Sequence record: PQ511148.1
Reading direction: 5' to 3' (one strand)
Length of the DNA: 64,000 nt
DNA from: Escherichia phage NHEP10
In this document: positions 8,824 through 9,153 of the stretch, in pieces
Layout: each line of letters opens with the position of its first letter
Position numbering within the stretch: the stretch's first letter is position 1
Program-made: the position numbers and the translations under genes
The notes under the pieces: model-generated
The model's database searches: none
Told to the model about the DNA's origin: nothing
The model's input: only the letters and a program-made list of their open reading frames with translations

Positions 8824-9093
8824 TTATTTCTGTGCAATTTCGATGTAAGTTTTCAAAATATTTTGCCAATTAGGCATACCTTCTTGGACATATGCCGGAG
8901 AGCCGTCTTTGTTTTTGAATGACGCAAGTTTATCAGTGGCCCAATAACCTTTAGCTCGAGCTTCAGAATCAACTTTCATCCATACTTTGTTGAAGGCATT
9001 ACCATTAACTTTTGCACCATATTTTTCTACTAACTTAACTGCTTCAGCTTCTAGAACTTTTAAAGTACCTCGTAAGAAACGTGCTTTAGTCAT
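8824..9093 (-). CDS. hypothetical 89-aa protein, antisense to the late operon
   Basis: ORF with its own GTTTAC-N17-ATACTAT promoter (9124-9153) and SD GAGGAG; no family recognised. Confidence 0.55.
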   Translation of the reverse strand: MTKARFLRGTLKVLEAEAVKLVEKYGAKVNGNAFNKVWMKVDSEARAKGYWATDKLASFKNKDGSPAYVQEGMPNWQNILKTYIEIAQK

Positions 9094-9123
9094 TTTGTTT
9101 ACTCCTCTGTAGTTGATAAGTCT

Positions 9124-9153
9124 ATAGTATCACATACCAAATACGTTGTAAAC
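9124..9153 (-). promoter_or_regulatory. early sigma70-type promoter (GTTTAC-N17-ATACTAT)
   Basis: -35 GTTTAC and -10 TACTAT on the minus strand; drives the 8824-9093 ORF. Confidence 0.6.

Follow-up and report, generated by a model that had tools for sequence, protein, structure and literature searches.

Between genes 23 and 24 of the window (by which we mean the whole 64,000-nt stretch of DNA analysed, a segment of a Mosigvirus genome of the RB69-like T-even kind) lies an 89-aa ORF on the minus strand which, taken together with the promoter in front of it and the hairpin behind it, is very probably a real early accessory coding cassette. As a feature it is of an ordinary kind, an early accessory ORF of T-even phages with regulatory elements at both ends, and it is already annotated as "hypothetical". 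The evidence presented below concerns its coding status, its regulatory boundaries, the family of diverged alleles to which it belongs, the exchange of those alleles between phage backbones, and the predicted structure of its product.

An 89-aa coding gene in the gap between genes 23 and 24

The gene order in this segment is gp22, gp23 (plus), the 89-aa ORF (minus, with an ATG start), gp24 (plus) and rnlB (minus). The gap from the stop of gp23 (8771) to the start of gp24 (9195) measures 423 nt and encloses the entire ORF, which therefore overlaps neither gene 23 nor gene 24. A preliminary description of this DNA had placed an 89-aa ORF on the strand opposite to gp23 and gp24, between the two, and had called it "transcribed antisense". 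The placement is borne out at the coordinates given in Table 1, with conservation and pN/pS backing the coding assignment, and the opposite strand is likewise correct; the antisense wording, however, is loose, as the ORF overlaps no late gene, although read-through of its transcript into gene 23 is possible. Across 551 nt spanning the locus, the DNA is 99.5% identical to that of phages NHEP11, JN02 and SF.

Comparison of homologues yielded pN values of 0.14-0.29 against pS values of 0.70-0.80, the synonymous sites being saturated, and such a low pN against a saturated pS indicates that the 89-aa protein is under purifying selection. The ORF is also conserved across seven diverged genomes, with the promoter laid out alike. 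A longer ORF is found close by: it has a TTG start and 156 codons, lies antisense to the last part of gene 23 and extends across the terminator (window 8367-8837, minus). This reading frame through gene 23 is almost certainly spurious, and its presence means that ORF length by itself is no evidence of coding in this AT-rich genome. A search against Rfam returned no match at the locus of the 89-aa ORF or anywhere else in the 64-kb window, and no tRNAs were found.

Table 1. Window positions of the features at the 23|24 locus and of the early promoter units, with the membership of the three allele types
Feature	Position	Strand	Basis or composition
gp23	7203-8771	plus	
gp23 intrinsic terminator hairpin, GGGAGAC-UUCG-GUCUCCC + U-tract	8795..8814	plus	folding; PhAPEC2 annotates a terminator here
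89-aa CDS, A-type allele, RB69ORF188c/189c family (phrog_6003)	8824..9093	minus	profile match, predicted fold, pN/pS
Shine-Dalgarno GAGGAG	9102..9107	minus	8 nt 5' of ATG, read from sequence
T4-type early (sigma-70) promoter	9124..9153	minus	GTTTACA, 17-nt spacer from TTTACA, TG-extended -10 TGATACTAT
-10 of early promoter, TG-extended, TGATACTAT	9132..9124	minus	
-35 of early promoter, GTTTAC(A)	9153..9147	minus	
gp24 late promoter TATAAATA	9160-9167	plus	back-to-back with early promoter
gp24	9195-10478	plus	
Seven early promoter units (low coordinates of the 30-nt motif)	9124, 24753, 35190, 38722, 39905, 60769, 62678	all minus	
A-type allele			Mosigvirus, P0004, P0005, P0006
B-type allele			Dhakavirus, Gaprivervirus
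C-type allele			P0021, P0022, ABPH49

An early promoter set against the gp24 late promoter

A promoter scan called the element in front of the ORF as TTTACA-17-TACTAT with a TG, and transcription from it would be expected to start near 9117. The gp24 late promoter, which points the other way, is separated from the early -35 by only 6 bp, and the A/T-rich stretch 5' of that -35 is in fact the reverse complement of the late promoter TATAAATA. Matches to a generic sigma-70 promoter occur here at chance level (3 in 1 kb, with 3.1 expected), and a more specific pattern was informative: the composite early motif GTTTAC-N15-TG-N-TA-NNN-T occurs seven times in 64 kb against an expectation of 0.08, each time on the minus strand and each time before the start of a minus-strand ORF, at a distance of 26-34 nt in six cases and of 92 nt in the seventh. 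A GAGGA-type ribosome-binding site accompanies six of the seven units, or five of the six if the unit of the 89-aa ORF is set aside. The seven units are near-identical, reading GTTTACA...GTG(A/T)TACTAT, and several of them drive small ORFs of 78-109 aa; one downstream ORF is, judging by its N-terminal sequence, presumably an rnlA (gene 63) orthologue.

The promoter of the 89-aa ORF matches the published T4/PST early promoter consensus TTTACW-N17-TAYWAT (PMC4122927). Early promoters carry GTTTAC at -36 to -31, and the published T4 and RB69 consensuses agree with our motif; the late promoter consensus is given in the same source (PMC1524935). In consensus, spacing, orientation and A/T-rich upstream sequence, then, the element is that of a T4-type early gene. 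A promoter of the phage's own early class should be read by host sigma-70 RNA polymerase right after infection, and early timing of the gene's expression is accordingly what the sequence predicts. The layout of the early promoter is kept in seven genomes, that of T4 with its segD gene included, and six further genomes, in which the identity of the flanking genes is down to 56-84%, have the back-to-back late/early arrangement 5' of their homologous ORF. The preliminary description had read the promoter as GTTTAC-N17-ATACTAT, which is the same site with the hexamers shifted by one base, and its assignment to the early class is backed by the seven occurrences against 0.08 expected. The strong Shine-Dalgarno sequence that it noted is the GAGGAG in front of the ATG, and the gp24 late promoter that it had the gene facing is present on the plus strand, in an arrangement that is conserved.

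At its other end the cassette is bounded by the gp23 hairpin, which begins ten nt beyond the stop codon of the 89-aa ORF and folds with an MFE of -14.8 kcal/mol (z -4.4) on the plus strand and of -13.5 kcal/mol (z -5.2) on the minus strand. Its minus-strand form leads into the A-rich tail AAAAUAAG, with no U-tract. The corresponding tail in the Dhakavirus WG01 is A-rich as in the window. In the Gaprivervirus VR20 (L002 3283-3320), the hairpin after the ORF is followed on the ORF strand by TTTTTATTT and looks like a true bidirectional terminator. Given these different tails, the behaviour of the early transcript at its 3' end may differ between genera.

A family of three diverged allele types

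The preliminary description had regarded the gene as an orphan, and this proved wrong. The 89-aa protein matches phrog_6003 with an E value of 9.2e-45, residues 1-89 aligning to profile positions 1-90 of 90, and the same profile is matched by all 16 aligned family members. With tblastn the family was found in 239 phage records, about 120 of them Mosigvirus records at 94% identity or above and about 119 of them below 60%. Most of these records call the product a "hypothetical protein", and the annotators of PhAPEC2 had already linked the gene to RB69ORF188c. The same slot is occupied on the same strand in PhAPEC2, RB69, Gaprivervirus VR20, Dhakavirus WG01 and four metagenomic contigs, such that it is shared across three genera, Mosigvirus, Dhakavirus and Gaprivervirus. 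None of the sources searched records a function for the family.

When 1.84 billion representative proteins were searched exhaustively with a profile, nine matches came back, seven of which are family members or fragments, and none of these seven genuine matches was placed in a bacterial genome. The two long matches, P0024 and P0025, were rejected: they are cytochrome-b5 and Ig-domain repeat proteins, whose scores arise by chance and are summed over the repeats. Two other database entries call for comment. P0006, a 90-aa homologue (L006 4001-4273), is named "NADPH-dependent curcumin reductase CurA" in one public source, a label that is evidently a mis-annotation. The 160-aa ENA protein P0020 has a B-type fragment at its C-terminus, joined to unrelated sequence, and probably comes from a chimeric short contig. 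A search of the literature found no functional mention of RB69ORF188c, NP_861878 or phrog_6003.

Three allele types can be told apart (Table 1), with a mutual identity of 27-39%. Copies of the C type lie outside the 23|24 slot, among runs of small same-strand ORFs (ABPH49, L008), and they occur in two contexts that are not T-even, namely an unclassified phage contig and the Vequintavirinae phage ABPH49.

Exchange of alleles between backbones

The allele carried by P0006 does not follow its backbone. This 173-kb contig has a backbone of the Dhaka/Gapriver type, with identities to VR20 and WG01 of 92-93% for gp23, 92-93% for gp24a and 87-91% for gp24b, whereas its ORF is of the A type, being 62% identical to the ORF of the window and only 27-29% to the ORFs of VR20 and WG01. 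In a sliding comparison of DNA identity between P0006 and WG01, the flanks stand at 80-98% and the stretch from the promoter to the stop codon and hairpin at 42-50%, with the drop falling at -60 to -30, inside the promoter, and the recovery at +270 to +300. The P0006 locus is a cassette replacement, its junctions lying at the conserved promoter and terminator elements.

In some comparisons the ORF diverges faster than its neighbours. Between the window and WG01 the ORF is 33% identical, against 84% for gp23 and 69% for gp24; between VR20 and WG01 it is 59-62% identical, depending on the method, against 96% for gp23 and 89% for gp24. Measured against its flanks, the 89-aa gene is often the element that evolves fastest. 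Between the window and the P0005 contig, however, the ORF (70%) changes no faster than gp24 (69%) or RnlB (63%), so its rapid evolution is not uniform.

Disrupted alleles

Several copies of the gene are frameshifted. Phage mogra and an independent metagenome contig both lack one nt of an A5 run at codon 23, and 310Ecol104PP carries a frameshifted B-type allele. In the RB69 reference, +1 and -1 indels split the gene into RB69ORF189c (29 aa) and RB69ORF188c (41 aa); in this record (NC_004928, L018 3292-3532) the +1 indel sits inside a 20-nt patch of clustered mismatches and the -1 indel lies near codon 69. The split gene of RB69 is either a laboratory-strain pseudogene or the result of errors in the 2003 sequence, and mistakes in sequencing may account for some of the disrupted copies, RB69 being represented by an old sequence. 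The occurrence of frameshifted copies in isolated phages suggests that the gene is dispensable on laboratory hosts.

Elsewhere in the window, hoc (head outer capsid, with Ig repeats) is also split, into ORFs of 257 aa and 240 aa (12822..13595 and 12176..12898, minus). The split falls at a run of eight A (12826-12833, within 12822-12898), and with A7 the reading would continue ...SGVKKIKCVAQ.... In an alignment of the region, close relatives have 1600 nt where the window has 1601, and a 288-nt tandem duplication of an Ig-domain repeat extends across 12737-13319. The split may reflect a genuine frameshift, in a gene that is non-essential, or slippage, or an error in sequencing the homopolymer.

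Other contents of the 23|24 slot

The reading of the 23|24 gap as a slot for cargo, made in the preliminary description, agrees with what other T-even phages hold there. In T4 the slot contains segD, which encodes a GIY-YIG homing endonuclease, lies on the same strand as the 89-aa ORF and ends at the gp23 hairpin, and the early promoter of segD is fused likewise to the gp24 late promoter. Among 811 records matching the T4 23-segD-24 segment, segD is present in 53; in a typical Tequatrovirus or Klebsiella T4-like phage the flanks are about 83 nt apart and the slot is empty, as it is in most Tequatroviruses. The gap in UFV13 holds the terminator and TATAAATA only, without the early promoter, which indicates that the early promoter moves together with the cargo. 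On backbones of the Dhakavirus and Gaprivervirus type, two tandem paralogues of gp24, the vertex protein, lie 3' of the slot (L002 330-2894, L003 336-2899, L004 1338-3897 and L006 1337-3901), the slot-adjacent copy being about 70% identical to the single gp24 of the window and the distal copy about 56%.

The absence of a homing endonuclease motif from the 89-aa protein was likewise upheld: Pfam, NCBIfam and PADLOC returned no significant match, and no free-standing homing endonuclease domain rose above threshold in Pfam or NCBIfam. We also considered the gene as a remnant of SegD, a hypothesis that was ruled out by an hhalign probability of 1.4% against the SegD profile.

Predicted structure and conserved residues of the product

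We generated a predicted structure of the A-type protein with AlphaFold2 from the 16-sequence alignment, which gave a confident model (pLDDT 93.3, pTM 0.79) consisting of a helix at residues 3-25, a second at 31-48, a beta-hairpin formed by 52-60 and 66-70, and a helix at 76-88. The B-type allele was predicted with an identical topology (pLDDT 93.9). A fold search of BFVD turned up nothing outside the family, the match being a member at 31% identity (TM 0.87). Foldseek found no fold match for the model in the PDB, and no HTH or winged-helix fold was recognised in it. Searches at the sequence level were similarly unproductive. Pfam gave only DUF4859 (E 0.0031), below that entry's own cutoff, with weak matches scattered inconsistently across the other members (DUF5380, Ca_bind_SSO6904); NCBIfam and PADLOC gave nothing meaningful, and a sequence profile search of the PDB gave nothing below an E value of 0.38.

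The protein is basic (pI 9.7) and soluble, with no hydrophobic segments. Net charge is positive in each of the 16 family members, the pI is 9.2-9.9 in 15 of them, and 80% or more of the members keep the basic positions 3, 24, 39, 40 and 62. Residues M1, K3, F6, G31, N32, N35 and Q70 are invariant, N30, L14, L21 and A45 nearly so, and an N-G-N-A-x-N motif fills the loop that joins helix 1 to helix 2 and runs into the beginning of the latter. None of the positions conserved across the 16 aligned members is a Cys, His, Asp or Glu. As no catalytic residue, Cys or His is conserved, the product most likely acts stoichiometrically, by binding, and the pattern of conserved residues argues against an enzyme and for a binder. 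We infer a small basic protein of alpha/beta structure that resides in the cytoplasm.

Possible roles of the gene

With somewhat less than even confidence, we propose that the product is an early stoichiometric binder of a variable host factor, either host-directed or anti-defence. From established T4 biology, host RNA polymerase would fire the promoter at once on infection; Alt/ModA and AsiA would later shut the early promoters down, and gp55-RNA polymerase would then use the adjacent late promoter in the opposite direction. During the first minutes of infection, the product would neutralise a host factor that varies between strains, be it a defence system or a takeover target, which is the target class with the best support. 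The cassette itself is exchangeable by recombination at its conserved promoter and terminator ends. A variable host target would explain why deeply diverged alleles circulate in one slot, why the family has reached unrelated phages, and why isolates grown on permissive hosts have lost the gene. As for the accessory or anti-defence role at which the preliminary description had guessed, early expression, allele swapping, recurrent frameshifts and the unmatched fold provide a circumstantial fit to an accessory, conditionally useful gene.

A bolder version, which we consider doubtful, would make this protein the founding member of a new early anti-defence or takeover class with a previously unseen small alpha/beta fold, the A, B and C types being alternative specificities against one polymorphic E. 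coli target that are shuffled among T-even genera and at least one unrelated phage lineage at the promoter and terminator ends.

Should the proposed role hold, the cassette would offer a compact, easily tested candidate for a new factor of counter-defence or takeover in E. coli phages of the therapeutic type (Mosig-, Dhaka- and Gaprivervirus), and controls exist already in the natural loss-of-function alleles of mogra and RB69 and in the two or three allele types that can be swapped. Should the gene prove neutral on all hosts, it would be one more conserved hypothetical T-even ORF.

Among the other explanations, the product might be a small basic early nucleic-acid-binding protein that coats or recognises DNA or RNA and so acts, for instance, on the host nucleoid or transcription, or on the adjacent early/late control region. 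This we think unlikely, while recognising that the consistently basic pI fits nucleic-acid binding equally well: the positive charge of every family member, the narrow pI range of all but one and the conserved basic positions speak for it, as does the protein being small, soluble and early.

It is quite improbable that the cassette is a selfish or slot-filling element whose protein contributes little and which persists by recombination or by blocking segD-type invasion or cleavage at 23|24. The presence of segD in the same slot of T4, cassette boundaries that coincide with the conserved promoter and hairpin, the shuffling by promoters and stem-loops that has been documented in T4-type phages (PMC4122927, PMC2839356), and the frameshifted alleles in isolated phages would all suit such an element, but the amino-acid sequence is under strong purifying selection, the confident fold is kept between alleles that are 30-35% identical, and the gene is intact in the approximately 120 Mosigvirus records at 94% identity or above.

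Still less do we expect the transcript to be the product, with an early "anti-late" RNA reading into gene 23 and damping premature capsid expression while the ORF is incidental. In the window the minus-strand hairpin runs into AAAAUAAG in place of a U-tract, which makes it plausible that transcription reads on, antisense, into the 3' end of gene 23. Nevertheless, the hairpin in VR20, followed by TTTTTATTT on the ORF strand, is a proper terminator; most Tequatroviruses lack both promoter and cassette, which argues against a general requirement; and the constraint at the protein level is strong.

The least probable by our estimate is a product associated with the head, whether packaged as an internal protein or helping in assembly, as the location of the gene within the head gene cluster, between genes 23 and 24, and weak matches of two of the 16 members to phrog_8765 "internal virion protein" (E 0.0015-0.038) might suggest, given that the gene has an early promoter and no late one, that its N-terminal M-x-K-x-x-F lies within the helix at 3-25 (pLDDT 94-97), that no L/I-x-E cleavage site is conserved across alleles, that the annotators of PhAPEC2 marked the neighbours but not this gene as "structural virion protein", and that the gene is missing from most Tequatroviruses. 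The T-even capsid-targeting sequence is of the MKTYQEFIAE type and comes with a gp21 cleavage site, and the 89-aa protein has no such sequence.

Comparison with known systems

The small early proteins of T-even phages that serve host takeover or anti-defence include Arn, Dmd, TifA, AdfA and Acb2/Vs.4. With these, and with the internal proteins Ip1-3, the 89-aa protein has in common that it is small, predicted to be expressed early, accessory, variable in its alleles between lineages and probably dispensable on laboratory hosts. This is a likeness of lifestyle only, and in the libraries searched none of these proteins had sequence or fold similarity to ours. Ip1-3 act against GmrSD subtypes (PMC12373910), and the paper on accessory genes and internal proteins does not cover the 23|24 slot. 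The phages of HIDEN-SEQ are T4, Bas37 and Bas54, with no Mosigvirus among them, and a literature search for anti-defence work on Mosigvirus returned nothing relevant. Mosigvirus DNA is arabinosylated (PMC8594841), and synthesis of glycosylated 5-hydroxycytosine has been reported for RB69 and inferred for Dhakaviruses among others; because the latter source lists Tequatroviruses too (PMC13326640), a link between the gene and DNA modification is a loose phylogenetic correlation at most.

The closest named relatives, RB69ORF188c and RB69ORF189c, share the family, the slot and the strand with the gene described here, and differ in that the RB69 reference gene is split into pieces of 29 aa and 41 aa whereas the gene of the window is intact at 89 aa. 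The T4 segD cassette resembles ours in its slot, its minus-strand orientation, its early promoter abutting the reverse complement of the gp24 late promoter (TATTTATAAAGTTATTTACA...TGATATTATAAT) and its end at the gp23 hairpin. In contrast, SegD itself is a 223-aa protein with a GIY-YIG domain, while the 89-aa protein has neither a nuclease motif nor similarity to the SegD profile.

As judged from its sequence layout, the exchange of the 89-aa cassette resembles the shuffling mediated by PeSL cassettes (Arbiol et al. 2010, PMC2839356; Comeau et al. 2014, PMC4122927). Its TTTACA-N17-TACTAT fits the PeSL consensus TTTACW-N17-TAYWAT, a stem-loop stands at the other end, and the enclosed ORF has been replaced by an unrelated-looking allele between close backbones, with the breakpoints at these elements. 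The arrangement differs in that the canonical PeSL stem-loop lies directly 5' of the promoter, where our cassette has the late promoter and the start of gp24 instead and no hairpin, and in that our cassette is sited in the structural core and not in a hyperplastic region. PeSL elements have nevertheless been noted inside core regions, beside "plastic nonessential adaptive genes" (PMC2839356/PMC4122927). The 89-aa gene offers a clean example of the exchange of a promoter- and terminator-bounded cassette inside an otherwise conserved head-gene module, at the very slot that segD occupies in T4.
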